64,000 nucleotides of DNA. Origin: Corynebacterium sp. GTDB lineage: Bacteria; Actinomycetota; Actinomycetes; Mycobacteriales; Mycobacteriaceae. Of the stretch, positions 8,841 to 59,322 are shown one piece after another. Location of the stretch: NCBI RefSeq assembly GCF_030826625.1, contig NZ_JAPJNQ010000001.1, forward strand, positions 36,187 to 100,186, written 5' to 3'. The first letter of the stretch is position 1, and every line of letters begins with the position of its first letter. The position numbers and the translations under genes are program-made. The notes under the pieces were generated by a model. The model was not told where the DNA came from and did not search any database. It worked only from the letters and a program-made list of their open reading frames with translations.

Positions 8841-10133
8841 GTGAGTAATACGCGAGCCGCAACGGCGGACGACGCCACATCTACAACCGTCACACCTGCA
8901 ACATTGACCCCAAACGATACTTCTTCGAGTTCTGCTCTCACTATCGCTGAGCGTCTGCGTGATCACCCCCGGGTGCAAAAAACCATCATGGATGCCGCCC
9001 GTGCAGCCGCGCAGACACCCCAAGCCCAAACCCATGCGATGTCACATGCGTGGTTATTTACCGGCCCGCCGGGCGCTGGACGCTCAACCACAGCGTTGAA
9101 CTTTGCTGCTGCGCTGCTCTGCGAAACCCCGGGCGCCTATGGCTGTGGAGAATGCCAAGCCTGTCGTACAGCGATGACGGGCAAGCACACAGATGTCGTG
9201 CATGTCGTGCCGCAAGAGTTGTCGATCGGAGTGGATTTCGTCCGCGACAACGTTGTCTCTTCTGCTGCCAAGCGCCCCACGGTTGGCGCCTGGCGTGTGG
9301 TGATTTTCGAAGACGCCGACCGGCTGACCGACGGTGCCGCCAATGCACTGCTGAAAACCATCGAGGAACCGCCCGCGCATACCGTGATCATCTTGTGTGC
9401 GCCGTCGACTGACCCGGAGGACTTCCCACAGACGCTGCGTTCCCGCTGCCGCCATCTGTACGTGCCGGCGTTACCGGTGGACACGATTGTGCAGATGCTT
9501 GTCGACGAAGGTGCGAGTGAAAATCACGCCCGGTTGGCAGCGCATACTTCGTTGCGCCATGTTGGCCGCGCCCGCAAATTAGTGAATACCCCGGCGATCC
9601 AGCAGCGGCGTGCGCAAGCCATCAACCTCGCGGAAGCTATCTTCCACGAATCCGGTGGCTTCCAGGCCGTCGGCCAATTGGTTAAAGCTGTCGAAAAAGA
9701 AGCAAAAGAAAGTTACGCCGAAGCGGATGAGGCGGAAAAAGAACGTCTGCGCAACGCTTTGGGTATGGGGGCGAGAGGGAAAGGTACTCAGAAATCTGTT
9801 TCTGGTGGTGCTGGTGACTTGCGTGAGCTGGAAAAGCAGCAGAAGAAACGGCAAACGCGGCGTTTACGGGATGTATTGGATCTTGCCTTGGTTGATCTGG
9901 CTGGGATTTACCGGGACGCGCTGATGGTAAAGCTGGGCGCACAGGTGGATCTGACACATCCGGATTTTCAGCCGCTGGCCTCGGAGCTGGCTGAGCATTT
10001 GGATGAAGCGGGGCTGGTGGAATGCCAGGATGCGATTAGTCATTATCGTGAGCTTTTAGGCTTTAACGTCTCGCCGCAGATTGCTTTCGACGGGCTGGTG
10101 GGGCGTTTGCGCTGTGCATACCGGGTGCACTAA
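8841..10133 (+). CDS. holB: DNA polymerase III delta-prime subunit
   Basis: AAA+ Walker A (LFTGPPGAGRST) and a zinc module (CETPGAYGCGECQAC). The position is syntenic with Rv3644c/cg0376. The GTG start at 8841 is uncertain. Confidence 0.75.
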   Translation: MSNTRAATADDATSTTVTPATLTPNDTSSSSALTIAERLRDHPRVQKTIMDAARAAAQTPQAQTHAMSHAWLFTGPPGAGRSTTALNFAAALLCETPGAYGCGECQACRTAMTGKHTDVVHVVPQELSIGVDFVRDNVVSSAAKRPTVGAWRVVIFEDADRLTDGAANALLKTIEEPPAHTVIILCAPSTDPEDFPQTLRSRCRHLYVPALPVDTIVQMLVDEGASENHARLAAHTSLRHVGRARKLVNTPAIQQRRAQAINLAEAIFHESGGFQAVGQLVKAVEKEAKESYAEADEAEKERLRNALGMGARGKGTQKSVSGGAGDLRELEKQQKKRQTRRLRDVLDLALVDLAGIYRDALMVKLGAQVDLTHPDFQPLASELAEHLDEAGLVECQDAISHYRELLGFNVSPQIAFDGLVGRLRCAYRVH

Positions 10134-10175
10134 CTGTTACCGCCTCCCTGGTGTGGCGGTGCTAGTCCTGCCGTT

Positions 10176-10204
10176 TTCCATTGACGGCGACTATCGGCTA
10201 GAAT
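10176..10204 (+). promoter_or_regulatory. Candidate sigma-A promoter for tRNA-Thr (TTCCAT-17-TAGAAT)
   Basis: A -10 element TAGAAT at 10199-10204 with a weak -35 17 bp upstream. It lies about 70 nt before the tRNA. Confidence 0.25.
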
Positions 10205-10274
10205 GCCAGTGTTGCTGTGATTGTGCAGGAAGCCCGCTATGCGGGAATCTTTCACGGTTCCACACAAGCAACGT

Positions 10275-10350
10275 GCCATCTTAGCTCAGTCGGTAGAGCA
10301 GCTCCCTCGTAAAGAGCAGGTCAAGGGTTCGATTCCCTTAGATGGCTCCA
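10275..10350 (+). tRNA. tRNA-Thr (anticodon CGT), CCA encoded
   Basis: Manual cloverleaf fold: 7-bp acceptor stem GCCATCT/AGATGGC, D-arm GCTC/GAGC, anticodon loop cuCGUaa, T-arm AAGGG-TTCGATT-CCCTT, discriminator T plus CCA. Confidence 0.9.
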
Positions 10351-10542
10351 CTACTTCAACTCTTATTCCGCAGTGATTTTGTTGATCCGTGTGCCATGGG
10401 GGATTGGCGCAGCTACATCAGTTCTCCACTTTTCAGCCGAAGCGCGGCCATTGACGATAAGGCGAAGGCTAGAGCAAAAGCTGAAATATTTTTGTGAGCT
10501 TGCTAACAGCTGTGATACCGTGGCATCGAATGTGAAGGGGAG

Positions 10543-10839
10543 ATGATGCAGATGCAGAAAGTGCTCGATTTTTTTGGGTTCACTTCACGTACAGAAGACT
10601 CAAATGAACAGCGAAGAAAATACGTCTTTGACGACCTGAGACCATCTCTCAGAGCTCTGGTCATAGTAGGATCGCTGGGTCTTGCATTGCTTGTGGGATG
10701 CATATCCCATCTTATTAATGTCAGTGCGGGTGGCTATAAGCTTATTCCTTTCTGGCTGTTTTTACTATCTTTTGCGGTTCTGATGAGACTAGGAATTCGA
10801 TTTTGCTTGTCTCTTGAACAAAGAAAAATGGGAGAATGA
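10543..10839 (+). CDS. Hypothetical small membrane protein with 2 predicted TM helices (about 95 aa)
   Basis: An AAGGGGAG Shine-Dalgarno lies directly before an ATG triplet cluster. There are two hydrophobic segments. It sits in the low-GC islet downstream of the tRNA, convergent with the AlbA_2 gene. Confidence 0.4.
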   Translation: MMQMQKVLDFFGFTSRTEDSNEQRRKYVFDDLRPSLRALVIVGSLGLALLVGCISHLINVSAGGYKLIPFWLFLLSFAVLMRLGIRFCLSLEQRKMGE

Positions 10840-10890
10840 AATCTTCAAGCAGGCTGCATCTCATAATGCACTTGATGGGGTGTAGCTTGG

Positions 10891-12633
10891 TTATTCTTTG
10901 GGGGATCGATTTATACGATAACGCGTAGAGCGCTGTCCTTGTCGACCTTCCATCAGCACGCTTCCGGCTGTTTGAAGTTGTTTGAGTGCATACCGAAGTT
11001 GGCCAGGACTCAGTTCTGGTATTGCCTCTACCAGCTCGGGGAATCTCATGGGTGCCTGGTTTAGCTGAGCGATGATAGCTGCGGTATTCGTGCCGTGCAC
11101 TGATGAAAAATCTGACGTTCTACGCTGCTGGGTACCTTTATCCCGTGGTGTCTCGTGTGAAGTATCTCGCGGACGAAGTACCCCGTCTTGGTAAGAAGCG
11201 AGCTTGAGTGAGCTTAGTTCTGTGAGCAGATCATCTGCTTCGGACTGCCCGAGTGGGGCAAATTGCTTCCGCATTTGTCCTATTGACCAAGTCGCGCCTT
11301 GCTCTAACGAAAGCAGTAACTCCATTTGAATAAGTGAGAGTTCTTGGTTGTGTGCGAGTTTTTGCGCGTGCTGGCGTTGTTCCGCGGATAATCGAGGCTG
11401 TCTACGGAAAATTACTTTGAATTGTGCGCCGTTATCGAAAAATTGTGGACGAGTGAGATTGCTATCTCGGCAAGCTCGCAAGATTTCGGCAATGCCACCA
11501 CCTTCGCCTTCGATCACCGAGCTGCCGTCTGAAGTCTTGACGTGGCGCATGAGATTATACAAACGTTGGTTGACTGCAGATTTTGCCAGGTCTGAGCTTG
11601 TTAATTGTTCGATGCTGAGTCCATGAAGCCCACCTGGGTTGGTGATGATGAGACGCTCACGAGTTAATCGGATTTCTACGCTTTTACCACCACCTAACGA
11701 GGCAGCGCTGAGATCGCGGTGAACCAACGCATTGGCTATCGTTTCTCTTATTGCGCGCAGTGGAAATTCGCTACGTTTTTTCATATGTCCACTGGCTTGA
11801 TATTCGTCGATGGTGTCTGCATTGCGCGCTACCCACGCAACTGCATCTTCCAAAAGATCTGGAACAGCACCCTCAAAAGTTTCGATATTACGGTTTCGTG
11901 GTCCACCAAATCCTTCTGGCATTCGCACTGCGGCTGTAACTCGTAAAGCCGGCTCGGCCGCTTGTGGGAAAAATCCGAGCCCGTACAGGCCTGAAACACT
12001 TAATGTACCGTCGGGAAGAATAACTTTCAGGGTACGTAGCAAATCCGCATCATTAACTACCTGGGACAAACGCCGAGAATACTGGCGAACTTCTGCTATA
12101 TATCGTGAAGTTAATTCACTATTCAAATCTGCGCGAGTAGTGCCAGGTACCGGTTCAGAATCTGTTTCGTGGCTTCTTGCTGCTATGAGTGATGCATTCC
12201 GGATGAGCTGCAAATCGTTCGCGTTCATTTCATAATCGCCATCGCTTTGCCTCAGATATGCTTTGCCACGGTATCTGGCCGGTTTATGCTCAGGTGATAG
12301 CGGATTTACGGTTATGGCTACCACGATTTTGCCATCGATAGGGACAACGTCTGAGAAAATTTGTGGTGCTGGATCGATGCTGCTCCGTGTTTGGGTTGTC
12401 ACAGCCTTGATTATTTTCGCTGGCTCATTTACTCCAGTGACACTGAAGTTTGTGCCTTCATCGACACCGAGCAGGACTGTGCCGCCAGTAGGCATATTCG
12501 CAAAGGCACAGATCGTTGTAGGCAGATTGTCTGGGACAGAGGAGCCGCGTTTTGCTTCGACATTCAGGAAGTCGTCGCCAAACTCCTGCATCTCGTGCAA
12601 TGTTTGAATTAAAGTTCCACTGTCCCATTTCAC
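10891..12633 (-). CDS. Schlafen/AlbA_2 (PF04326-like) + HATPase_c_4 (RecG-C-terminal-like) + tandem winged-helix protein; putative defence- or regulator-type ATP-binding protein
   Basis: The N-terminus LIQTLHEMQEFGDDFLNVEAKRG...VLLGVDE...IVVAITV fits the AlbA_2 pattern. The middle IRETIANALVHRDLS...IITNPGGL fits HATPase_c_4. The C-terminal wHTH segments are LSLIQMELLLSLEQGATWSIGQM and IIAQLNQAPMRFPELVEAIPELSPGQLRYAL. GC content is lower than the flanking genes. GTG start at 12633. Confidence 0.7.
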   Translation of the reverse strand: MKWDSGTLIQTLHEMQEFGDDFLNVEAKRGSSVPDNLPTTICAFANMPTGGTVLLGVDEGTNFSVTGVNEPAKIIKAVTTQTRSSIDPAPQIFSDVVPIDGKIVVAITVNPLSPEHKPARYRGKAYLRQSDGDYEMNANDLQLIRNASLIAARSHETDSEPVPGTTRADLNSELTSRYIAEVRQYSRRLSQVVNDADLLRTLKVILPDGTLSVSGLYGLGFFPQAAEPALRVTAAVRMPEGFGGPRNRNIETFEGAVPDLLEDAVAWVARNADTIDEYQASGHMKKRSEFPLRAIRETIANALVHRDLSAASLGGGKSVEIRLTRERLIITNPGGLHGLSIEQLTSSDLAKSAVNQRLYNLMRHVKTSDGSSVIEGEGGGIAEILRACRDSNLTRPQFFDNGAQFKVIFRRQPRLSAEQRQHAQKLAHNQELSLIQMELLLSLEQGATWSIGQMRKQFAPLGQSEADDLLTELSSLKLASYQDGVLRPRDTSHETPRDKGTQQRRTSDFSSVHGTNTAAIIAQLNQAPMRFPELVEAIPELSPGQLRYALKQLQTAGSVLMEGRQGQRSTRYRINRSPKE

Positions 12634-12662
12634 ACTGTAAAGAGTACAGTCACAGTGTGAAA
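12628..12662. promoter_or_regulatory. 11-bp perfect inverted repeat (tttcacactgt / acagtgtgaaa) overlapping the AlbA_2 gene start codon
   Basis: Read directly: tttcacactgt at 12628-12638 and acagtgtgaaa at 12652-12662 with a 13-nt spacer. This is an operator-like or RNA-hairpin-like element. Confidence 0.45.
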
Positions 12663-12848
12663 GTGTCTAGCACTCTCAGGGTGCTTGTGCACTGTGATGT
12701 GCACTGTTAGTCAGTAGTGTTTCAGTGTTGATGCCGGGATGATGCCTGGGTGTTTTTACCAGTGTTTTTGTGACTGTAGGCGTCTTCGGCGAAAGTGAGT
12801 ATTCTGATTTGCGAGTGACAATATGTCATCGATAGACCCTAAAATCAG

Positions 12849-12938
12849 GTCACAGTGTAAAACAACAGTGCAAAACTGGCTTACATTGTAAAACGCACAC
12901 TGTAAATTACAGTCTGAAAATTGCAGTCTGGAAACTGC
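12849..12938. repeat. Array of about 6 degenerate direct repeats (consensus ACAGTGTAAAAC) upstream of the AlbA_2 gene
   Basis: The units cacagTGTAAAAC, aacagTGCAAAAC, acatTGTAAAAC, acacTGTAAATT, cagtcTGAAAATT and cagtcTGGAAACT recur at 12-16 bp spacing. Further CACTGT/ACAGTG copies occur at 12619-12710. Confidence 0.45.
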
Positions 12939-13081
12939 GTTGTGGATCCGCAGCGTGAGCTTGGTACGGGCCGCGGCCGTGATTGCAGGGCCCGCTATAG
13001 CAAGCAGAAACCTCTAGCTAGTGGAGTTAGCTAGCAAGCCCCATCACCGGCGGCGCCCTGTTACTTAATAGTGAGCGGGTT

Positions 13082-14725
13082 TTAAGCCGACAGCTGGCGG
13101 GGGATTACCTTGCCTGTGGCGTTGCGCGGCAAATCATCGACGAAATGCACATCGCGGGGTACCGAGTGCTCAGCCAGACGGGTGCGCACCCATTGGCGAA
13201 TGTCATCGGCAGTAATGTCTGGGCCCTCAGGGTCTTTCACAATCCAGGCAGCAATGCGGCTAAACGTCGCATCATCATCAACACCTTTGGCGTAGTGATC
13301 AGCAATACCTGGCATCGTATCCAGCACATTGTCGACCGACGAAGGGTAGACGTTTTCGCCGCCGACGATGATCATTTCATCAGCGCGGCCTAATACGTGC
13401 AGCATGCCGTCGTTGTCGATATAGCCGAGATCGCCGATGGATTGCAGCATGCCGATGCGGTCCAGTTTGTGCTTCGGATTGGTGTATCCGACCATCGTGG
13501 TCGCGTTGCGCAGATAAATTTTGCCAATCTTGCCACGGGGGACTTCCTTGCCGTCGTCGTCCAAGATTTTTAGCAGGGTGCCGTTGGCGATGGAACCGCC
13601 CACGGTGGGGTCCTCGGCGATTTGTTGTGGTGTCGCGGCACTGGCCAAGGTGAGCTCGGTGGAACCATAAATATTAGCCAGAATTGGGCCGAAACGCTCG
13701 ATGGTATCCGCTGCCACCTGGGGAGTTAGCGCGTGGCCGGAGGAAGCGATGACCTGCAACGAGGAGGTGTCGTAATCCCAGGTGTTGTCGAGCGTGACCA
13801 TCGATTTATAGAACACTGGCGACGAGATCAATACCTCGCAGCGGTGCTCTTGGATATCGTTGAGGCAGGCTTCGGCATCAAAAATGCGCCGTGTGACCAC
13901 CGTGGAACGTAGCGCGAAGGCAATGTTGAGCATCGCCCAACCCCAAGTGTGGAAAATCGATGCTGTCATTTGGACGGTTTGGTTGGCTTTCCAGGGGACA
14001 GCATCCAGGATTGTGCTTAACACCGTGGGCAGTTTTGGCTCAGGCCGCGCAATACCTTTTGGCACGCCGGTAGTGCCCGAAGACATCAAGACGATATTGC
14101 CGTGCTTCGGAAAGCGAGGCAGCTTTTGCTCGATGTTGCGCTTGACGATCTCGGCTAAAGCCAGGTGCTCTCCGGTGTCTTCGCCGCCTTCGTGGCCGAT
14201 GACCACGTGCAAGTTGGTGGCGGCTGCAGAGCCAGGTTGCGGCAGGCGGTCTGCAAATTCGCTGTCGATGACCAGCACATTGATGTCGTTCTCTTCAATG
14301 CAACCAGCGAGTTGTTCAGATGAAGAACCAATATTGAGCAAATAGATTGTTGCCCCGGCATAGCCCTTGGCAACCAGCGGGGTGACGATGCCACGCCCAT
14401 TGCGTGCCATGATGCCCAGACGGATTTCGTCGACTGGCAGCTGATGTAGGTAACGGGCAAAAGTAGTGGCCTGTTGCTGCAGATCGCGGTAGGTCATGGT
14501 GCCTTCGTCGTCAAGCAAGGCAGGGCGATCCGGGCAAATGAGTGCCGCTTGTTCGATCTCGCGGGCAGTGCTTAGCCAATAACGCGCGACGATGCCGGGG
14601 GTGTGTAGCAGCGCGCGTGGGTTGTCGCCGGGGGCAATGATCCCGGTTCGCAGCAATGTAGGAACTAGTTTTGCTAGCCCCTTGCCGTTGGTAGCGAGGT
14701 ATTCCAGCCGGTCGCGCAATGACAC
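13082..14725 (-). CDS. AMP-dependent synthetase/ligase (acyl-CoA synthetase family)
   Basis: AMP-binding motif LMSSGTTGVPKG, plus YGSTE and GKV/I PRQ-type C-terminal motifs. GTG start. Confidence 0.8.
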   Translation of the reverse strand: MSLRDRLEYLATNGKGLAKLVPTLLRTGIIAPGDNPRALLHTPGIVARYWLSTAREIEQAALICPDRPALLDDEGTMTYRDLQQQATTFARYLHQLPVDEIRLGIMARNGRGIVTPLVAKGYAGATIYLLNIGSSSEQLAGCIEENDINVLVIDSEFADRLPQPGSAAATNLHVVIGHEGGEDTGEHLALAEIVKRNIEQKLPRFPKHGNIVLMSSGTTGVPKGIARPEPKLPTVLSTILDAVPWKANQTVQMTASIFHTWGWAMLNIAFALRSTVVTRRIFDAEACLNDIQEHRCEVLISSPVFYKSMVTLDNTWDYDTSSLQVIASSGHALTPQVAADTIERFGPILANIYGSTELTLASAATPQQIAEDPTVGGSIANGTLLKILDDDGKEVPRGKIGKIYLRNATTMVGYTNPKHKLDRIGMLQSIGDLGYIDNDGMLHVLGRADEMIIVGGENVYPSSVDNVLDTMPGIADHYAKGVDDDATFSRIAAWIVKDPEGPDITADDIRQWVRTRLAEHSVPRDVHFVDDLPRNATGKVIPRQLSA

Positions 14726-14996
14726 AAAATCACACCTTCAATAATCAGAACACAAAAATTAATGAGCACACGGAGCGGGTGGCAATAAGATTCAGACAAT
14801 AAAGCCTAGACATTAGAGCCTTGGGTGAGTCTGAGTAAAGCCGAGTGGCACCCGAGTAATACTTTTCATTTAGAAACTTACACCATAACTATCGTCACTC
14901 TAGTTAGTTTTCGTTACATCGTGCAGCACGCGAAATGAAACTTGCTAGTAGATGAAGCATCAGCGGCATCGAAGGCATTTCTGTAATATCAGGTAT

Positions 14997-16148
14997 ATGA
15001 CATATCAAGAAAATCTTATTGAAAATGATGATCAATCAAGCGGCGCTGCAGATTCACAAACCGTGAAGGGCGTCATTGCGCGTTCGAAGGGTGCAGAAGT
15101 CGAAACCGTCGACATTGTCATCCCTGCTCCCGGCGCACATGACGTCGTTGTTGCCGTGAAAACTTGTGGTATCTGCCATACCGATTTGGCTTACCGCGAT
15201 GGCGATATTGAAGATGCTTACCCATTTCTGTTGGGCCACGAAGCTACTGCAGTCGTCGAATCCGTCGGCAGCGAAGTTTCCCACGTCAAAGTTGGCGACA
15301 CCGTCGTACTGAACTGGCGCGCTGTGTGCGGCGAATGCCGGGCCTGCAAGAAGGGCCAGCCACGTTACTGCTTCGATACCCACAATGCTTCTAAGCCAAT
15401 GACGCTTGCCGACGGCACCGAGCTCACCGCAGCTTTGGGTATCGGCGCTTTGGCGGAAAAGACACTGGTACACGAAGGCCAGTGCACCGTTATTGATTCG
15501 GACGCCGACGCGGCTGCTTCTGGCTTGCTGGGCTGCGGCGTCATGGCCGGCCTCGGTGCGGCCGTGAATACCGGTGAAGTTACTCGTGGTGAATCCGTCG
15601 CTGTCTTCGGCGTCGGTGGCGTCGGCATGGCAGCTATCGCCGGTGCCAGCTTGGTGGGCGCACGCACAATCATTGCGGTGGACCTGGATGCGCAGAAGCT
15701 CGAGCGTGCCCGCGAAGAATTCGGTGCAACCCACACGGTCGATGCCAGTGGCAAGTCGGAAGAAGAAGTTATCGAAGCAGTCCGCGAGCTCACCGATGGT
15801 TTTGGTCCCGATGTCACCATCGATGGTGTAGGTATCCCAGCTACCACCCGACAGGCTTTCTACTCCCGCGATCTTGCCGGACGCATGGTCATGGTGGGCG
15901 TTCCTGGGCCGGATGCGAAATTCGAGATCCCAGCTATTGACTTCTTCTCTCGCGGTGGCGCGTTGAAGCCATCCTGGTACGGCGATTGCCTGCCAGAGCG
16001 TGACTTCCCGTTGTACGCTGATTTGGCTAAGCAGGGACGCTTCCCACTGGACAAATTCGTTGACGAACGCATTACCCTGAATGATGTAGAGAAAGCATTC
16101 GCAACCATGAAGGCAGGCAAAGTCCTGCGCAGCGTAGTAGAGGTGTAA
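14997..16148 (+). CDS. Class III Zn-dependent alcohol dehydrogenase, mycothiol-dependent formaldehyde dehydrogenase type (MscR/FadH-like)
   Basis: [12 protein letters not shown], the [12 protein letters not shown] zinc ligands, and a Rossmann GVGGVGMAA motif. It is followed by an MBL hydrolase as in Rv2259-Rv2260 and cg0387-cg0388. The start is uncertain (ATG 14997 versus an internal GTG near 15063). Confidence 0.75.
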
Positions 16149-52508: not shown

Positions 52509-55061
52509 TTAGACACCGTGCAGAGGATTTTCCAGTTCACCAGCGTAGATGAGCGACGAATCTTGGTCACCAAGAGTAACCATAGTATGAGGGTTGCGAA
52601 GCTGTAACCGGTTTAACGTTGAATGTCGGAATCTCGGTGCCAATAGAGCTTGCCAAAGCCTTGCCTGCCGAGAGTCTCCGGTAGTTAGTTCAGGATGATC
52701 TTTGGCATATACGGAGGCAACGTGCCGAAGCTGTTCCCAAAAGACGTCTTCCTCGAGAATTGCATGATCGTCAAGCAGTGCTGCGAGATGGCGGAGAACG
52801 CCGTCAATAACATCAGTATGTATAGAAAGCGCCTGCTGGGATAAATCTTCGGGTGAGTCAGAACCGCAGCGAGCGCGCAATCGTTCTAGTCCAGAAGGAA
52901 CCGGCGTTTCATTCGACACCACGGCTATTTCTTCGCCAAGGTCCTTATGATAAATGCCAACCGGTTTATTCTGATTGAGACGTAAAATGACGTTTTCCGT
53001 ATGAGGCATGAAAACAATTCCGTAACGCACCAGTGCATGAATGAGAGGGCGAACGTACAGAGTCAAAAGCTGGTTGATCCAGTCAACAGCCGATAAGCCG
53101 CTCTGATTAATCCAGGCACTTATAAGAGGTAATCCTTCGTCATCAGAGTGAAGTATGCCCGCTAGCGTAGATAAAGTGTCGCCGTCATCCAATGCGGGAG
53201 TGGTCTCGGGGCTGAACGGAGATTGTCTCCATAATGCAGCGGTCATTTTAGTGTGAGAACCGTCGTTGGTGACGCGATGGTAAACACTGCCTGTATATCC
53301 TACTGACGCAATCTCAGGGAGAAATCCAATGCCTGATTGGAAAAACTCTGGATCATCTCCGATTAAATTCAGCAGCCAGAGATTAACTCGTGGAGTTGAC
53401 TCCATGTAATGTGCAGAAAGCCCGCGAGTAAAACCCATGTTACGAACTGCGACGGCGGTTTTTACGTATGGTGCAGCTGGAGTAGAAGTGTTGAAGAAAG
53501 TGCGCAGAGATTGTTGTGGGCGGTAGGCTTCCCCTTCTCGACCGAGTGGAACAATTCGACCGGTAGCTAAATCAGCGGAGAATGTGGTGGTAAAACGTTG
53601 CTCCCACTGCCAAGGGTGAACAGGTAGCGGGATGTAGTCGTCCGGATTAAGGCCAGCTAGTCTACAGCGGTCTTTAAAATCCGGAACCAGAGTCAATATA
53701 GCCTCGTTAGAAGAATGAGAAGACCCTGATTCTTGCGCCCTCTCGTACTCGATTGTCGCGAGATGTGCATAGTTTTTGTCTACGGCACACCAAACAAGAT
53801 CAGTAGTACTACTGAGTTCTGGCGAGAAAGCACGGAGTTGAGTTTCGCCCATTCCTCCGCGACCGGAGTTAGCTAAGAAGCCAGGGTGACCAATTACCAT
53901 CGCAGATTCAATTGCCTGGAATAGCTCTGCAGGATCTCGAGTAGCGTCGGCCAGTTCAGTAGATGTTGGCCGTGGAATGGATAAAGTCCGCGCACGTGCG
54001 GCGAAAGTTGCTGAAATTTCTTCGAGGTACGTTTCGCGCGAGCTTTTCGCGATACCAAGTTGCTCAGCTGCATCAGCGATACCTGTAATGATATCGGGTG
54101 TCCAAGTGAGATCTGCTGGATCGTGGATGCTGAGCGGATCTACGCTGAGATGAAGCAATCTATGCTCGCGAGCCCGAAAAATTAGTTTCCGGGATCCCCA
54201 GCTGATTTGATAGGAACGCCATCCGCTGTGATTGCCATCGTTAGACTCAGTCTCATTAGCAGACTCTTTGATCTTTCGCGGGGATATAAGTCTTTCATGG
54301 GTGAATTCCCGCAATGCTTTGGCGAAAAGTTCGCGGTGTGCTGCTTCAGCGGTTTTGGCTAAGTGGCCGATACCGAGTGTTACGGGGCTGGATGAATCTG
54401 TGGGCTTAATTAACTCCCAGGGGGTAGGCGCAATAGGATAACTCAGAGGGGCATTCGGCGAGCCCAGAAAATCAGGGCGTGTGCAATATTGGATTAACGC
54501 GGTTTTCGGTTTTCCGGACATCGTTAAGGTTGTTGTGAGCCCTGGTTGGGTGAATCCTGTTCGGGCATTTTTTCGATGGATTCCCAAATTAGAGACATCA
54601 GGCTCGACGACGATTCGGTTCACTTCACCGTGGCTAAAAATCCAGCGGACTAGAGCAGAGAAGATGTTATCGGTCAGTCCATGGATGCTCTTGCCTATGG
54701 GAGGCGAAACTAGGATGTGCATCCCGATATCGCCTTCATGGAGAGTGAATTCAGAACATGTGTTAAGTACAACGTGCTTTGGGTCGTAGGTTTCCGAAAG
54801 AGCAATCGGATTTCCGTCGAGATATAGTAGCCAAGCCTGTTCAGCATTGCTTGTTTCGATGCGTCGGTATTCTGCCAAAATCTCTTGTTCACTGGCATCT
54901 AAAGCACCCCAAAAGTGCGAACGAGGATGAGTGACCCATGTATGTAGTGTTTTAGCATCCTTCGTTGGTTGCACTGGGCGAATATTGACTGTCCCTAACG
55001 AAGTATGCATTGCACCAGGAGTCAAGCTGATTGGGTGGCAGGGTTGTTGTGATTTACTCAT
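52509..55061 (-). CDS. Fused siderophore N-acyltransferase (IucB/DesC-like) :: NIS synthetase (IucA/IucC/DesD-like), BibC-type
   Basis: N-terminal LHTWVTHPRSHFWG...NRIVVEPDVSNLGIHRKNARTGF fits the Acetyltransf_8/IucB family. The C-terminal roughly 620 aa (AMVIGHPGFLANSGRGGMGETQ...) are IucA/IucC plus a FhuF-like domain. The ATG at 55061 overlaps the upstream stop (ATGA) and has a GGAGGAG Shine-Dalgarno. Low GC. Confidence 0.8.
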   Translation of the reverse strand: MSKSQQPCHPISLTPGAMHTSLGTVNIRPVQPTKDAKTLHTWVTHPRSHFWGALDASEQEILAEYRRIETSNAEQAWLLYLDGNPIALSETYDPKHVVLNTCSEFTLHEGDIGMHILVSPPIGKSIHGLTDNIFSALVRWIFSHGEVNRIVVEPDVSNLGIHRKNARTGFTQPGLTTTLTMSGKPKTALIQYCTRPDFLGSPNAPLSYPIAPTPWELIKPTDSSSPVTLGIGHLAKTAEAAHRELFAKALREFTHERLISPRKIKESANETESNDGNHSGWRSYQISWGSRKLIFRAREHRLLHLSVDPLSIHDPADLTWTPDIITGIADAAEQLGIAKSSRETYLEEISATFAARARTLSIPRPTSTELADATRDPAELFQAIESAMVIGHPGFLANSGRGGMGETQLRAFSPELSSTTDLVWCAVDKNYAHLATIEYERAQESGSSHSSNEAILTLVPDFKDRCRLAGLNPDDYIPLPVHPWQWEQRFTTTFSADLATGRIVPLGREGEAYRPQQSLRTFFNTSTPAAPYVKTAVAVRNMGFTRGLSAHYMESTPRVNLWLLNLIGDDPEFFQSGIGFLPEIASVGYTGSVYHRVTNDGSHTKMTAALWRQSPFSPETTPALDDGDTLSTLAGILHSDDEGLPLISAWINQSGLSAVDWINQLLTLYVRPLIHALVRYGIVFMPHTENVILRLNQNKPVGIYHKDLGEEIAVVSNETPVPSGLERLRARCGSDSPEDLSQQALSIHTDVIDGVLRHLAALLDDHAILEEDVFWEQLRHVASVYAKDHPELTTGDSRQARLWQALLAPRFRHSTLNRLQLRNPHTMVTLGDQDSSLIYAGELENPLHGV

Positions 55062-56476
55062 ACGTTTTCTCCTCCAAATTGTTGGAAAGTCCAGGAATCT
55101 TCCACTTCGTAGACTGTGCGGCCGCATATGTTGTTGAGAATGATTGAGTTCCGCCAAGCTCCCATTCCCAAGTCTGGGGCATTGAGGCTATGGGTATGTT
55201 CTTCGGCATTGAGCACGTATAAGTCACGTCGCTGGTTAACCGTAAAATCGAGATTTACGTCCAGACGTCCTTGTTTGTCTGTGTTGATTTCGCCTGCTTC
55301 CGCAGCGGTAATCAAATGCGAAGGTATGGCAGGGCGCCCGTAGCCTGTAGCGAGGATGACGGCATCAGTCGCATGTATGTCGGCATTACCGGTTTCGTTG
55401 TTGGTCAGCTTCAGTAGTATTTGGCTCTCCGCGGCCTGCTCGTTGATGTGTCGTTCGTATGAGCTTTTGGGATCACTTTCTGTGAACAACTCCACGGTGA
55501 CATCTGGGCGTAGCTCTCCGCGTAGCGGAGTGGTAATGGACAGTTGATATAACGTGTCATAAATATCGTTAACTAAATCGCCGGAGATGCCCTTGTACAG
55601 GTTTCGCTGCTGGCGATTAATTTGATCGCGTCGCGCTTCTGGAAGTCTGTGGAAGTGGCGCACGTAGTCCGTACTAGTTAACTCCAAGGTGAGCGCAGTG
55701 TATTCCATTGGGAAGAAACGGGGTGATCTTGTTAACCAATTAAGACGGCGACCGGTTGCTGCGAAGGGCTCCATCAGGTGACGATAAATTTCTGCTGCAG
55801 ACTGGCCGGAGCCGACGATGGTCAATGACTGTATGTCTTCACTGTTCGATAAACGTTCTGCATGAAATAGGAAGTCAGAACTGTGAATAATGTTTTTGGT
55901 CTGATTTCTAGATTCGACAAGATTGGGTTGGAGCGAAGTCGGGACGTAAGGTTGAGTTCCCGTTCCGTTGACAAGATTCTTCGCAAGTACGGCCCTGGGG
56001 TTTGTGCCTCCAACTTGGACTCGCCAAAGTCCGTCTTTCGTTCGATGAACATCTGTTACGGGGCTAGACCATTGGAGTGTGCTAAGTTGGCCTGCAACCC
56101 AGGCGCAATAATTAGAGTATTCCGTACGATATGGGTAAAAAGATTCGCGAATGTAAAACTGATAAATTCGCCCCTGTCTTTTTAAGTAGTTTAGGAAGCT
56201 CCAAGGGCTGGTGGGATCGGCCAGACTGACGAGGTCCGCCATGAAGGGAACCTGGATCGTAGAGTTTGGAAACATTACGCCAGGGTGCCAACAAAAACCT
56301 TGATTTTCGTCGAAAAAGATGGCTTTGAGCTCATTCGATTGCACCAAGGGGTGTGCGAGTGCCGCCATTCCCAGATTGAAGGGCCCGATGCCGATCCCGA
56401 CAATGTCGAAAACTTCATCGGCAGCAACGCGCTGAGTTATATTAGTTGACGGTTGTTCGTGGATTTTCTTAGTCAT
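55058..56476 (-). CDS. FAD-dependent amine (lysine/diamine) N-monooxygenase (IucD/DesB/PvdA family)
   Basis: FAD-binding DIVGIGIGPFNLGMAA at the N-terminus and a K_oxygenase-like overall pattern. The ATG at 56476 has an AGGAGG Shine-Dalgarno and sits 2 nt after the decarboxylase stop. Confidence 0.85.
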   Translation of the reverse strand: MTKKIHEQPSTNITQRVAADEVFDIVGIGIGPFNLGMAALAHPLVQSNELKAIFFDENQGFCWHPGVMFPNSTIQVPFMADLVSLADPTSPWSFLNYLKRQGRIYQFYIRESFYPYRTEYSNYCAWVAGQLSTLQWSSPVTDVHRTKDGLWRVQVGGTNPRAVLAKNLVNGTGTQPYVPTSLQPNLVESRNQTKNIIHSSDFLFHAERLSNSEDIQSLTIVGSGQSAAEIYRHLMEPFAATGRRLNWLTRSPRFFPMEYTALTLELTSTDYVRHFHRLPEARRDQINRQQRNLYKGISGDLVNDIYDTLYQLSITTPLRGELRPDVTVELFTESDPKSSYERHINEQAAESQILLKLTNNETGNADIHATDAVILATGYGRPAIPSHLITAAEAGEINTDKQGRLDVNLDFTVNQRRDLYVLNAEEHTHSLNAPDLGMGAWRNSIILNNICGRTVYEVEDSWTFQQFGGENV

Positions 56477-58019
56477 CAATTTCCTCCTTGCTTTGTAGTT
56501 TGGCGCATTCATCTGTTCCAGCCGCACAAATTTTCTCTAATGCGTAGCGAATATCATCCTTAGTGAGACGTGGGTTCAGTATTGTGAATTTCAGGTAGGT
56601 TTTGCCGTTGCGCCTGGTGCTGGCTATGACGAGTTCATTCGCGTTGAACAACTGACGACGGATTGCATCGTTGATTTTGTTGATGACTTCGGTCTCCCGC
56701 ATACAAGTGTGTGAGCTTGGACTACCTGGCAGTGATGGTAGGAAACGGAAAAGGACTGTGCTCAATGTCGGGGTAGTGAGTAATTCTAGTTCCGGAAATT
56801 CATGAATTAGCTCCGCTGCATCGGTAGCAATTTCGCAACATCTATCGAATGCTTGGCCTAGCGCTTTGGGTCCGTCGGCTCGTAGGCTGAGCCACAATTT
56901 GAGTGCATCGAAGCGTCGGGTTGTTTGTAATGAGCGGTTTGCAAGATTCAATCGAGTGTCGGTCTCTGGATTAAGGTAATCCGAATGCCAAGTGACGTGT
57001 TCAAGTTCAGTGAGGTCGCGATAGATCAAAGCTGAACATGCGACTGGTTGGAAAAACGTTTTGTGAAAGTCAAGGCTAAATGAATTTGCTTGGTGAAGCC
57101 CAGAGAGTAGTTTTTGGTTTTTATCGCTAAGCAGAAGGGCACCACCGTAAGCACAATCTACGTGAACATAAATTCCGTGCTGCTGCGCTATCTGGGTTGC
57201 TTGTGCAATCGGGTCAATTGCTCCTAGATCTGTTGTGCCTGCAGTAAGGGCTAAGCAGGCTATGGTGTGTTTGCCATCGGTCTCGATTAAGGAGTTGATT
57301 GTACGGCGGAGAGAGGAAATTTTTAGTGCACCAGACGAATCACACTCGATTGTAATGACAGCTTCCTTTGGAAGGCCTAAAATATGGGCGGAGCGCGCAA
57401 TAGAATAATGTGCTTCTGCGGAGCAAAGAACTCGAAGGGAGTCTAGACTCGATCCCGAGTTCAAAGCTTTTTCACGGGAAGTGTAAAGGGCTTGTAAGTT
57501 TGACTGTGTGCCACCTGAGGTAAACGTCCCAGTTGCGTTATTCGCGTTCATTCCTGCGGAGGCAGCGAACCACTTTATGATTTGGTCTTCGATGATTGCT
57601 GCGCCGCGTCCCTGATCCCAGCTTTCGACTGCAGTATTCAATCCTGCAGAAATGGTCGCTCCGGCGAAACCTGCTGCTGTTATAGGGCAATTTAGATGCG
57701 CAAGATAACGTGGGGAATCGTACCGGATAGCGTGTGATACCCAAAGATCATTGAGTTCTTTTAGTGCTTCGTCTAGCGACCCCAGTGGTGTGTCAATTTC
57801 TACAGCATTGAAAGCTGCAGAAAGTTCGTCGACGCCAAGGTCCTTGTTGGGACAAAAAGTCTCGGGTGACGGGCTAAATGTCGGCGCGAGGGCTTGATTG
57901 AGCGTTTGTCCGGCGGATGACAAGGCGTGTTGATGACTATAGCCGTCTCCCAGGAATTGTAATCCTGGTTGTGCTTGTGGGACGAACTTCTGGGGGTATG
58001 AATCCATAGAGACCGACAC
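56469..58019 (-). CDS. PLP-dependent group II decarboxylase (DesA/lysine- or diaminobutyrate-decarboxylase-like)
   Basis: TSGGTQSNL and the PLP-lysine motif SLDFHKTFFQP. It is the first gene of the biosynthetic operon. The start is uncertain (GTG 58019 or ATG 58007). Confidence 0.8.
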   Translation of the reverse strand: MSVSMDSYPQKFVPQAQPGLQFLGDGYSHQHALSSAGQTLNQALAPTFSPSPETFCPNKDLGVDELSAAFNAVEIDTPLGSLDEALKELNDLWVSHAIRYDSPRYLAHLNCPITAAGFAGATISAGLNTAVESWDQGRGAAIIEDQIIKWFAASAGMNANNATGTFTSGGTQSNLQALYTSREKALNSGSSLDSLRVLCSAEAHYSIARSAHILGLPKEAVITIECDSSGALKISSLRRTINSLIETDGKHTIACLALTAGTTDLGAIDPIAQATQIAQQHGIYVHVDCAYGGALLLSDKNQKLLSGLHQANSFSLDFHKTFFQPVACSALIYRDLTELEHVTWHSDYLNPETDTRLNLANRSLQTTRRFDALKLWLSLRADGPKALGQAFDRCCEIATDAAELIHEFPELELLTTPTLSTVLFRFLPSLPGSPSSHTCMRETEVINKINDAIRRQLFNANELVIASTRRNGKTYLKFTILNPRLTKDDIRYALEKICAAGTDECAKLQSKEEIDD

Positions 58020-58248
58020 TAAGGTAAGGCTTCAGATGGTTCAATGAATGAAGTCTGTGAATTTCTTGTTATTTTGGTGGATGCGCTAGCATCTGGTGTC
58101 CTGTTTGTTAAATAGGAAAACCTTGCATAATGTGTCGGGCGCCCTATATCCTGAAAATGTTTATCAGACTTTCTGATGACCTTACGGAAAATCGTGCCAA
58201 CAATGTGTCGTATGGCGGTGCGCGGAATCAACGAAAGAAGGAATGAGC

Positions 58249-59322
58249 ATGTCATCTCTTATGCCCCATTCGGTTTTGCATACAAGCAACAGTAGCGGCT
58301 TAATTGCCCGTCTAGCAGCAGTTGTCTCTTCTATGACCTTAATGCTTGGTCTTGCAGCGTGTGCTGAAAATGGCGAAAGCAATGATGCTGCCGACAACAA
58401 CTCTGGTGAAACACGCACGATTGAACACGCACTTGGTGTTGCCGAGATTGAGGGCACACCCGAACGTGTGGTTACCCTTGGCCAGGGTTCCACCGAGACT
58501 ACTCTTGCACTCGGCGTGGTCCCGATCGCCGTTGAATCCTATGAATGGGGTGCAGATGAATCGGGCTACTTGCCATGGGTCAACGAAGAGCTCGAAGAAA
58601 TGGGCGTCAAAGATGACGAGAAGCCAGAGCTGATTACCGGTGCCGAAGAACTTAGCGCGGAAGAGATTGCGGCGTTGGAACCTGATCTGATCTTGGCCCC
58701 TTGGTCTGGCCTTACGCAAGAGCAGTACGACCAGATCAGTGAGATTGCGCCAACCGTCGCGTACGAAGAAGAGCCATGGGTTATTACTTGGGAAGAACAG
58801 ATCAATACTGTTGCTGAAGCACTGGGTAAAGGCGACCAAGCGCAGGACTTGATCGACGGTATCAACCAGCAGTTTGACGATGCCAAGGAAGAATCTTACG
58901 GCGAGCACACCTTCAGCTTCATCTATAACTCTGGAGTGGGAAACTACGGCATCTTCTTGCCAACGGAACAGCGTGTTCAATTCGTGTCCAAATTGGGCCT
59001 CCAGGTAGATCCAGCGGTTGAAGAGTTCCGGGATAGCGTCGTTGCGGGAACTGACTCCGCGACCGTCAGTGCAGAAAATCTGGATAAATTGAATGATTCA
59101 GATTTGATCTTCACCTTCTACTCTGACGAAGCCTCGCGGAAAGAACTGCACCAAGACCCTGCGTACTCCAGTATCGCTGCTATTGCACAGGGTGCTGAGG
59201 TTGCTCCGACCGACCAGTCCTTTGTTACGGGGTCATCGATGATTAACCCACTGACTGTTCCATGGGCAATCGAACGTTACAAAGAACAGATTGACGACGC
59301 GCTGGCAAAAGCCCAGCAATAG
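58249..59322 (+). CDS. Siderophore ABC transporter substrate-binding lipoprotein (FecB/FhuD-like)
   Basis: LMLGLAAC lipobox followed by a periplasmic-binding-protein type 8 fold pattern. It is divergent from the biosynthetic operon. The ATG at 58249 is spaced correctly from an AAGGA Shine-Dalgarno; the ATG at 58243 is too close. Confidence 0.8.
   Translation: MSSLMPHSVLHTSNSSGLIARLAAVVSSMTLMLGLAACAENGESNDAADNNSGETRTIEHALGVAEIEGTPERVVTLGQGSTETTLALGVVPIAVESYEWGADESGYLPWVNEELEEMGVKDDEKPELITGAEELSAEEIAALEPDLILAPWSGLTQEQYDQISEIAPTVAYEEEPWVITWEEQINTVAEALGKGDQAQDLIDGINQQFDDAKEESYGEHTFSFIYNSGVGNYGIFLPTEQRVQFVSKLGLQVDPAVEEFRDSVVAGTDSATVSAENLDKLNDSDLIFTFYSDEASRKELHQDPAYSSIAAIAQGAEVAPTDQSFVTGSSMINPLTVPWAIERYKEQIDDALAKAQQ

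Follow-up and report, generated by a model that had tools for sequence, protein, structure and literature searches.

A Schlafen-GHKL gene with two winged helices and a promoter repeat array in a variable slot 3' of tRNA-Thr in Corynebacterium: a candidate defence islet exchanged between lineages

Introduction

We analyzed a window of 64,000 nucleotides (64 kb) from Corynebacterium sp. (contig NZ_JAPJNQ010000001.1; coordinates are window positions on the forward strand), in which a small islet directly 3' of the gene for tRNA-Thr(CGT) encodes a protein of 580 amino acids (aa) with a Schlafen/AlbA_2 nuclease domain, a GHKL ATP-binding domain and two winged helices. With a confidence slightly better than even, we read it as a small, horizontally exchanged defence islet that encodes an autorepressed, ATP-gated tRNase for abortive infection. 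All nuclease and ATP-binding motifs of the protein are intact, a repeat array that recurs throughout the protein family and tracks the recognition helix of the terminal winged helix is present at the promoter, and the islet was truly inserted into a slot of variable content. According to the proposed mechanism, the Schlafen gene would give rise to a leaderless mRNA, its promoter being embedded in about ten TYACAnTGTRAA sites, and the C-terminal winged helix of its own product would bind this array, keep expression low and possibly keep the protein on DNA. Once triggered, most likely by a phage infection, the protein would bind ATP through its GHKL domain, which would lead to dimer or tetramer assembly, and this assembly would pair the Schlafen domains into an active horseshoe. 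The Schlafen/AlbA_2 domain, acting as a metal-dependent RNase, would then cleave tRNA, causing translation arrest, by which the infection would be aborted. ATP-driven oligomerization and tRNA cleavage are proposed here by homology to RzAgo, RorSlfn5 and SLFN11; autorepression by the terminal winged helix on the array and the phage trigger are suggested by genomics only.

The preliminary description of this DNA considered such proteins poorly characterised, which is outdated since 2025-26, as the SLFN+GHKL module and prokaryotic Schlafens are now on record as anti-phage tRNase effectors (Kuzmenko et al., 2026, bioRxiv 10.64898/2026.05.29.728809; Perez Taboada et al., 2026, PMC13056530). A catalogue of 5,930 prokaryotic Schlafens (pSlfn) with an Ex4(E/D)xK motif lists fusions to a "histidine kinase" (34%) and to a histidine kinase plus a domain of the helix-turn-helix (HTH) type (19.2%) as the commonest ones (Perez Taboada et al., 2026). 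pSlfn genes are associated with defence islands, and two other fusion types protect Escherichia coli via phage-triggered tRNA cleavage; among the seven systems tested two were protective, neither of which is a HisKinase fusion (Perez Taboada et al., 2026). Of 103,533 prokaryotic Schlafen proteins, 58.6% contain the pair of PF04326 and PF13749, which was named "Schlatpase" supradomain; these Schlatpase proteins are mostly small, and >90% of their tails contain an HTH (Kuzmenko et al., 2026). In RzAgo, a SLFN-pAgo (prokaryotic Argonaute) protein from Runella zeae, single-lobed Schlafen domains are paired into a mammalian-type horseshoe, enabling tRNA cleavage, and the activation of the nuclease by ATP-dependent dimer/tetramer assembly is known for RzAgo alone (Kuzmenko et al., 2026). 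TrlG, a stand-alone AlbA_2+HATPase_c_4 protein, arrests replication at 36-37 °C (Hapeshi et al., 2020, bioRxiv 10.1101/2020.06.02.129163). The window protein is a member of this known and very large class and shows the commonest prokaryotic Schlafen architecture.

Domain Architecture and Catalytic Motifs of the Window Protein

Pfam, AlphaFold2 (AF2) and Foldseek agree on the architecture that had been anticipated from the sequence, i.e., an N-terminal AlbA_2/Schlafen-type domain, a HATPase_c_4 core and two winged helices (winged HTH, wHTH). The AlphaFold2 model was built on 56 homologues and has a mean pLDDT of 89.6 and a pTM of 0.77. The gene and its domains are located as follows:

10891-12633, minus strand: stand-alone 580-aa Schlatpase-wHTH protein ("HisKinase-HTH" class), by open reading frame (ORF), Pfam, alignment, AF2 and Foldseek.
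12223-12564, minus strand: Schlafen/AlbA_2 nuclease domain, aa 24-137 (Pfam SLFN_AlbA_2, E 1.2e-15).
11404-11766, minus strand: GHKL (Bergerat-fold) ATP-binding domain, aa ~290-410 (Pfam HATPase_c_4 at 316-409, E 7e-19).
11164-11346, minus strand: first winged helix, aa ~430-490 (AF2 helices 434-444, 451-457 and 463-475, strands 480-482 and 485-487).
10909-11100, minus strand: second, C-terminal winged helix, aa ~512-575, with recognition helix SPGQLRYALKQL (AF2, Foldseek and weak Pfam).

The nuclease motif residues start with D21 just upstream of the Pfam envelope and reach up to 12573. The catalytic pattern E-x4-(E/D)-x-K is found as D21-x4-E26-x-K28, with a clade-wide conservative Asp for Glu at the first residue, and D21, E26 and K28 occur in 55/55 homologues. 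A third acidic position lies in GVD58-E59, where residue 58 is Asp in 33 of 56 sequences and Ser in 19, and residue 59 is Glu in 44/56. The Schlafen box C42-A-F-A-N46-M-P (42-48) is likewise conserved (AFANMP in 54-55/55 homologues, C42 in 50/55). In the GHKL domain the N-box R296-E297...N301-A302..H305-R306 and the G1 box P333-G334-G335-L336 are found in 56/56 homologues and the G2 box E375-G-E-G-G-G380 in 50-56/56. SLFN (PF04326) precedes GHKL (PF13749) in one polypeptide, as defines a Schlatpase.

Searched against the PDB with the whole chain, Foldseek returned DIP2311 of C. diphtheriae (3LMM) as best match (E 4e-24). The N-terminus matched 2KYY, which was also matched by sequence, and the tRNase domain of SAMD9 (9o0d; probability 0.97-1.0), the middle domain matched the GHKL kinases PDK1/2/4 (probability 0.99), and the tail matched ArsR/SmtB/CzrA/YodB (probability 1.0) and also MarR repressors. 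A sub-threshold Pfam match to a HxlR wHTH covers residues 518-558. The two winged helices are separated by a linker that is disordered in the AF2 model (494-509). As the third helix of the first winged helix is acidic (SEADDLLTEL), this domain may not contact DNA and may mediate protein contacts instead.

Among 5.8 billion proteins searched, hundreds of full-length homologues were found in Corynebacterium, Trueperella, Brachybacterium, Micrococcaceae and others, the nearest ones outside of the protein's own cluster being P0002 (59% identity) and P0003 (57%). Public records name the protein "transcriptional regulator" or "DNA binding domain-containing protein", and the public gene call (P0001) has 566 aa and starts at the ATG of codon 15 (window 12591-12633, minus strand). 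The GTG at 12633 is the better start, because the N-terminal pattern M-x-W-x4-L-x3-L is conserved in at least 90% of the 56 homologues, residues 5-18 form a helix in the AF2 model and a -10-like TACTCT lies 7 nt upstream.

Neither PADLOC nor NCBIfam gave a system-level or equivalog match for the 580-aa protein or for the second islet protein of 98 aa; the PADLOC release used, of 2023, is older than the Schlafen papers. The PADLOC search suggested in the preliminary description thus called no defence system in the islet and returned a partial match of the SLFN+GHKL part (residues 32-423) to positions 52-444 of the pAgo model with its 1121 positions. Two other identities were rejected. The protein is not a prokaryotic Argonaute, as there is no Piwi/PAZ Pfam match, the length is 580 aa and PADLOC matched only the N-terminal part of its model. 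It is not a RecG-type DNA helicase, the name used in some sources, as Pfam detects no DEAD/Helicase_C domain and PF13749 has the fold of GHKL proteins.

Repeated Sites in the Promoter Region

Palindrome-like sites crowd the 448-bp spacer in front of the gene; in gene sense they read TTCACAnTGTGAA or TYACAnTGTRAA. The features are:

12618-12935, no strand assigned: palindrome-like sites TYACAnTGTRAA, ~10 copies with core ACAGTG/CACTGT, by motif clustering and Tandem Repeats Finder (TRF).
12641-12646, minus strand: -10-like hexamer TACTCT, 7 nt before the GTG start, read from the sequence.

The array consists of a proximal cluster (12618-12710), which overlaps the -10 hexamer and the start codon (start-codon site TTTACAGTGTGAAATGG), mid sites at ~12757-12777 and a distal tandem cluster (12848-12935) with a 13-14-bp period (TRF). 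Of the 28 ACAGTG/CACTGT hexamers of the window, 8 lie within 12618-12903 (Poisson p 8e-12), the window-wide number being at chance (28 observed, 29 expected). CACWGTR is depleted outside of the cluster, with 7 sites compared to 28 +/- 6 expected for the whole window in dinucleotide-preserving shuffles. The array is kept in the relatives L001 (C. pseudodiphtheriticum DSM 44287), L003 (Corynebacterium sp. 102791.4), L004 (strain MSK297) and L012, in which indels correspond to whole repeats gained or lost. The same motif, again lying over the start codon, is present upstream of P0002 and P0003, which reside in unrelated neighbourhoods; therefore, the sites travel with the gene. P0002 is surrounded by genes for Fic, an Eco47II restriction-modification (R-M) system, AAA_14/DUF4143 and HTH_3+M78 proteins, P0003 by housekeeping genes. 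The P0003 gene (loci L010, 2706-7585, and L011) lies between tgt and Vut_1/YhhQ, a queuosine-precursor transporter gene, and adjoins a GluQ-tRNA synthetase-like gene; this position of a tRNase gene among tRNA-queuosine genes may be a coincidence.

To assess the family, 80 metagenomic loci with homologues of 27-53% identity were fetched and 69 gene upstreams were scored. A strict palindrome, TCACAnTGTGA with <=2 mismatches, was only 6-fold enriched in these 69 loci and confined to a subset. As the motif differs between clades, it was replaced by a motif-agnostic repeat score, the number of identical-hexamer pairs on both strands within 150 bp upstream:

Upstream of the homologue gene: n = 69, median 26.
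Remaining 150-bp windows of these loci: n = 3268, median 8.
Upstream of other long ORFs: n = 148, median 7.

The differences are highly significant (Mann-Whitney p 3e-29 vs all windows and 2e-20 vs the ORF-upstream controls), and 62% of the loci, or 20/35 clusters after collapse at 60% identity, exceed the 95th percentile of the controls. The clade-specific motifs include GGAACT (x11), TTTCAT (x8), TCTATG/CATAGA (x10) and CTTCAT(C/G)GACA (x8), and furthermore ACTTAC/GTAAGT, AACTAG, AACACT/AGTGTT and GATTTTG. The arrays of homologues often form two inverted blocks of direct repeats that end at the start codon. Among array-bearing homologues that were checked, 10/10 contain SLFN+GHKL and 9/10 a C-terminal wHTH detectable with Pfam.

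In 14 homologues with two wHTHs, the array motif varies together with the recognition helix of the terminal wHTH. Helices of the type Q-x-R-Y-(A/R)-L pair with (A/C)AGTG-type arrays at just 36-59% overall identity, QVTYAL pairs with CTTCATCGACA, QINPTL with GATTTTG and QLNPRL with ATTTCA. We propose on these grounds that the second wHTH is the reader of the upstream repeats. The idea that the site number reflects a tetramer with two wHTHs per chain was dropped, as arrays of the same size are found with shorter homologues that have a single wHTH. GlxR/CRP and LexA boxes differ from the motif in half-site orientation and spacing and were rejected as its identity.

A hexamer TAnnnT is found 5-8 nt before the start in 33/54 homologues compared to 1.5% at background ATG/GTG codons (binomial p 1e-46). 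As TAnnnT just before the start is the actinobacterial leaderless signature, a leaderless mRNA is predicted for the Schlafen gene, and the promoter geometry is compatible with such a transcript. A simple scan for sigma-70 promoters and terminators did not rise above shuffles, and the comparative -10 analysis was used instead. Searched with Rfam at E<=1, positions 10000-13300 contain the tRNA only, with no sign of a structured RNA in the 448-bp upstream spacer. Operators or autoregulation are not mentioned in the two studies on the protein class (Kuzmenko et al., 2026; Perez Taboada et al., 2026).

Promoters at which a winged-helix protein occupies repeated sites in front of its own gene, so that a costly system stays at a low level as long as it is not required, are known from BrxR and CapW, which are autoregulated wHTH regulators of defence loci, and from the iteron-binding plasmid Rep proteins with their tandem winged helices. 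Different from these, the DNA-binding domain is here fused to the effector, there are ~8-12 sites per promoter, and a function in replication is not implied.

A Variable Slot 3' of tRNA-Thr

The islet is framed by the following features:

10275-10350, plus strand: tRNA-Thr(CGT), the sole tRNA of the window (ARAGORN; Rfam tRNA, 66.7 bits).
10351-10405, no strand assigned: post-tRNA stretch common to C. propinquum despite its other cargo (blastn vs L002 stops at 10405).
10543-10839, plus strand: orphan 98-aa mini-protein with two predicted transmembrane (TM) spans, convergent with the Schlafen gene (ORF).
12941-13081, no strand assigned: G+C-rich palindromic spacer, likely the fadD terminator (inverted repeat I2 at 13000-13035).

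The 2731 bases from 10351 to 13081 are AT-richer than the flanks, as had been pointed out before: their GC content is 0.484 compared to 0.568 for the whole window, a value as low as which is reached in 12/613 windows of the same size. At third codon positions (GC3) the 580-aa gene has 0.43 and the mini-gene 0.38, compared to 0.60-0.68 for the flanking genes holB, fadD and cya (adenylate-cyclase-like). The gene content of the islet is the 580-aa ORF on the minus strand and the convergent 98-aa ORF on the plus strand. Its left border is at ~10405, where the blastn homology to C. propinquum DSM 44285 (L002) ends; the right border of the highly conserved block is at ~13050, as near-invariance in five genomes stops ~30-40 bp before the fadD stop codon.

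tRNA-Thr(CGT) is the conserved left anchor of a slot in the order holB-tRNA-Thr / cargo / fadD, preceded by topA and the adenylate cyclase gene, and it lies 3' of holB also in L001-L004, L012, L013 (C. breve) and L015. In C. marquesiae the slot is empty: the tRNA is directly followed by the acyl-CoA synthetase gene (fadD), with 55 bp between the tRNA end and the fadD stop codon, which is the arrangement that the preliminary description had proposed to look for. In C. propinquum DSM 44285 the homology to the window ends 55 bp past the tRNA and the next 9.7 kb contain other cargo, namely genes for a SoFic-like protein (split) and for a 652-aa protein as well as a complete R-M system of type I (PADLOC MTase_I 4e-176, Specificity_I 1e-51, REase_I 2e-223). 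The slot of C. breve (L013 11562-13884) contains genes for DUF6941, DUF4258 and DUF2283 proteins and one for a tyrosine integrase, which is broken into ORFs of 167 and 242 aa; DUF4258/DUF2283 is presumably a toxin-antitoxin-like pair. The empty site in C. marquesiae and the different cargo in C. propinquum and C. breve establish a presence/absence polymorphism at the tRNA flank, so that the islet is a true insertion 3' of tRNA-Thr and not a segment that is syntenic in all relatives at native GC content. As the cargo differs between the genomes (empty, SoFic plus R-M, split integrase, insertion sequence (IS)), the slot is a defence and mobile-element hot spot.

The features of an integrase-mediated tRNA-gene island, a recombinase gene together with a flanking repeat of the tRNA 3' end, are absent from the window islet, in line with the earlier reading of the sequence. 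No integrase domain was found with Pfam in the 580-aa and 98-aa ORFs, the two that were scanned. No second copy of the tRNA 3' end (16 and 25 nt, <=3 mismatches) and thus no att repeat exists in the window, and the best inverted match to the tRNA 3' end (I6) is at chance level.

Several observations were made on the cargo of relatives. In C. propinquum, the 652-aa protein (L002 12992-14950) is encoded between the split SoFic-like gene and the type I R-M system and has no Pfam or PADLOC match; it is a candidate defence gene. In L003 an IS element with a 393-aa rve/DDE transposase carrying an N-terminal HTH (11458-12975) lies directly after tRNA-Thr, and behind it the tRNA 3' end recurs as a 15-nt copy (CCTTAGATGGCTCCA), which is either a long target duplication or the result of a tRNA-end-specific insertion. 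Beside the intact Schlafen gene of this genome (L003 13143-13347), a mini-gene fragment (aa 42-82, 71% identity) abuts a fragment of the Schlafen 3' end (aa 541-575, 86%), which looks like a relic of an older islet copy beside the newer one. A different hydrophobic ORF of 69 aa (L003 13357-13566, minus strand) lies between these fragments and the intact Schlafen gene.

The convergent mini-protein with two TM spans, which had been noted before, is indeed present, with hydrophobic spans at ~33-58 and 63-90. It has no Pfam, PADLOC or NCBIfam family, and only its own cluster was found among 1.84 billion representative proteins. The mini-gene is intact in L001, L004 and L012 with omega (the ratio of non-synonymous to synonymous divergence) of 0.14-0.48 (Fisher p 1e-5, 2e-3 and 0.09, two of the three being significant) and is reduced to a fragment in L003; it is probably a real gene. 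As its synonymous divergence (dS), 0.13-0.25, exceeds that of the Schlafen gene, its history is partly separate. A role as conserved partner across the wider family was rejected, as it is an orphan and absent beside P0002 and P0003.

Exchange Between Lineages and Selection

Over the Schlafen gene and the spacer upstream of it (~10860-13050), L001, L003, L004 and L012 share 96-99% identity with the window. In the same genomes holB is only 75-90% identical to the window, and likewise fadD in three of the four. The dS values (Nei-Gojobori, each genome vs the window) are:

L012: Schlafen gene 0.024, holB 1.70, fadD 0.078.
L003: Schlafen gene 0.064, holB 1.94, fadD 1.10.
L004: Schlafen gene 0.079, holB 0.41, fadD 1.42.
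L001: Schlafen gene 0.114, holB 0.60, fadD 1.29.

The dS of the Schlafen gene is therefore 4- to 70-fold below that of holB in the same genome pairs. For L012 the dS of fadD is also low, because the exchanged tract runs through fadD there. Since the Schlafen dS is 0.02-0.11 compared to 0.4-1.9 for holB, the cargo has moved between lineages long after their divergence, by recent arrival or exchange.

The flanks are mosaic: fadD of the window is 98-99% identical to L012 but holB ~81%, and holB is 89-92% identical to L001 and L004 but fadD 78-79%. Recombination breakpoints cluster at the tRNA-Thr junction (window 9000-15000 vs L012, L003, L001 and L004). As the breakpoints shift between genomes, they point to transfer by homologous recombination through the conserved flanks, not by an integrase. 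A search for a plasmid or phage donor returned no close relative in PLSDB or INPHARED, all matches being <30% identical. Distant homologues of the SLFN+GHKL part (24-30% identity; H6-H15, H19-H25) are found on plasmids of the Pseudomonas syringae group and of Yersinia, in a cluster of Gordonia terrae phages (gene 38) and in Mycobacterium and Streptococcus phages.

Between intact copies, omega of the Schlafen gene is 0.17-0.38 and significantly <1 (Fisher p 4e-8 for L003, 0.02 for the other), which indicates purifying selection. The gene is a pseudogene in DSM 44287 (L001, ~13522-13609) and MSK297 (L004, ~13668-13676). Both share a 134-bp deletion (window 12484-12617) that removes codons ~6-50 including the catalytic motif, and a further frameshift is present near codon 285-290; codons 79-121 are missing in addition from DSM 44287. 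Both genomes still have an intact upstream repeat array and an intact mini-gene. The earlier view that the islet is probably old or decayed thus holds for the L001/L004 pseudogenes only and not for the window copy, which is intact and combines the low omega with a low dS.

Relation to Characterized Schlafen Systems

The window protein shares with RzAgo the N-terminal pair PF04326+PF13749, the acidic-x4-acidic-x-K motif, the xAFAN box, the E/N Mg-ATP residues of the GHKL domain and the comparison of this domain to a PDK-type fold. Unlike RzAgo it has no PAZ/MID/PIWI part and thus no guide-directed sensing, contains two winged helices instead and has Asp as first motif residue. As it has a single Schlafen lobe, it would need oligomerization, as does RzAgo. 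With the HisKinase-HTH class of pSlfn proteins it shares the combination of Schlafen nuclease, histidine-kinase-like ATPase and HTH (Perez Taboada et al., 2026), at <=27-30% identity to proteobacterial and other distant members. The proven pSlfn defenders have other sensor domains, i.e., an Ig-like domain in RorSlfn5 and DUF262 in EcoSlfn7. DIP2311 (3LMM) and 2KYY are the best structural matches for the whole chain and the N-terminal domain, respectively, and the Pfam tail family is called "DIP2311-like_C"; sequence identity to them is only ~18%, and both are structural-genomics entries. The human Schlafens SLFN11/SLFN13 and the SAMD9 tRNase domain contain a homologous catalytic lobe, and in them a nucleic-acid-sensing module gates the tRNase; the eukaryotic proteins, however, have a two-lobed Schlafen core in one chain together with a P-loop helicase or other sensors, whereas the window protein has a single lobe.

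TrlG of Photorhabdus laumondii is also a stand-alone AlbA_2+HATPase_c_4 protein, misnamed "RecG-like", accessory and patchily distributed, and its active allele arrests replication. It differs in that it is encoded in a three-gene operon with the small HTH regulator TrlR and the PHP-family protein TrlF and in that the trigger is temperature; the window protein has its HTHs fused, and its sole islet neighbour is the orphan 2-TM mini-gene.

Weighing of the Interpretations

A defence reading of the islet is reasonable, and a number of points speak against it. No stand-alone GHKL(-HTH) Schlafen has been shown to protect against phage and no tested pSlfn has the exact architecture, two Enterobacterales HisKinase fusions gave no protection in the tested panel, and ~30% of pSlfn genes lie away from known defence genes (Perez Taboada et al., 2026). 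On near-identical contigs, the genes called beside the islet are housekeeping or metabolic and include no recognisable defence gene, and the mini-protein does not accompany the wider Schlafen family, being absent beside P0002 and P0003. The first acidic residue of the nuclease motif is Asp where the consensus is Glu. The repeat score of the window itself (24 in the proximal 150 bp) is barely above the 95th percentile of the controls (19-23), so that motif clustering is the stronger case for the window array. The covariation between helix and motif comprises 14 sequences and was judged by eye, and a host factor could bind the array instead of the wHTH that we infer as its binder.

It appears unlikely to us that the main role of the protein is that of a regulator with sequence-specific DNA binding or of a nucleoid-type protein (COG2865 "predicted transcriptional regulator"), in which the Schlafen and GHKL domains would be ligand-sensing or nucleic-acid-binding modules with no immune role. 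Its two winged helices with ArsR/SmtB/MarR-like folds, the dense operator-like array at its own promoter and the names "transcriptional regulator" and "DNA binding domain-containing protein" in the sources would suit such a regulator, as would the lack of protection by HisKinase-type Schlafens in one published panel (Perez Taboada et al., 2026). However, a protein with DNA binding as its sole function would not be expected to keep the nuclease triad and the GHKL motifs invariant in 56 homologues as is observed, and no regulon is visible, the motif cluster being unique in 64 kb and CACWGTR rarer than chance elsewhere. The gene is moreover accessory, recently transferred and a pseudogene in two relatives, and a sister species has R-M genes in the slot.

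We assign a low probability also to a stress- or temperature-triggered growth arrest as mediated by TrlG, in which the same ATP-gated RNase would respond to a physiological cue and shape the niche range. The shared AlbA_2+HATPase_c_4 core, the replication arrest caused by wild-type TrlG at 36-37 °C and the patchy occurrence of TrlG together with the small HTH regulator TrlR, to which the fused HTH of the window protein would correspond, agree with it. Yet this function is compatible with a response to phage, the two not being exclusive, and the slot is a defence hot spot and related modules are proven anti-phage effectors.

That an old tRNA-integrated element has left the islet as an inert remnant, kept by chance, is very improbable: the missing integrase (two ORFs scanned) and att repeat in the window, the split integrase in the C. 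breve slot and the L001 and L004 pseudogenes would fit, but the window copy has its full length and every motif intact, omega of 0.17-0.38 (Fisher p 4e-8 vs L003) means purifying selection, and a dS 4- to 70-fold below that of holB makes the gene younger than the lineages.

The array might do more than repress. Though we regard it as doubtful, the array could be a resting dock and sensor, with oligomers parked on the 8-12 sites and their Schlafen domains kept apart, in a manner that parallels the inactive guide-RNA filament of RzAgo. Whatever disrupts this DNA contact would then release the protein, and ATP would drive its assembly into the active tRNase. Possible triggers are phage-induced degradation of the chromosome, a change in supercoiling, a phage DNA mimic and competing sites on phage DNA.

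Apart from the islet, the window contains a second low-GC region (52509-59322, ~0.48), a cluster for an NRPS-independent siderophore (NIS) with genes for a pyridoxal phosphate (PLP) decarboxylase, a lysine/ornithine N-monooxygenase, a fused acyltransferase-IucA/IucC-FhuF protein and a periplasmic binding protein.

Significance and Perspective

The protein class as such is known from the papers of 2025-26; what the locus contributes are the promoter array, the evidence for recombinational exchange across species and the natural series of intact, pseudogene and empty-site alleles. The tRNA-Thr/fadD junction is marked as a hot spot of defence genes in the C. propinquum/pseudodiphtheriticum group, with cargo that is exchanged across species boundaries by homologous recombination. 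Stand-alone Schlafen-GHKL-HTH proteins form the largest bacterial Schlafen class, comprising 19-58% of the family depending on the counting method, and their near-universal C-terminal HTH has so far been without explanation, for which the promoter array offers a concrete handle. With an intact copy, inactivated copies in sister species, an empty site and defined candidate binding sites, the locus is a natural test system in which a role of the HTH as regulator, tether or sensor becomes directly testable. If the dock reading were true, more than half of the bacterial Schlafens would share an undescribed DNA-tethered guard mechanism.

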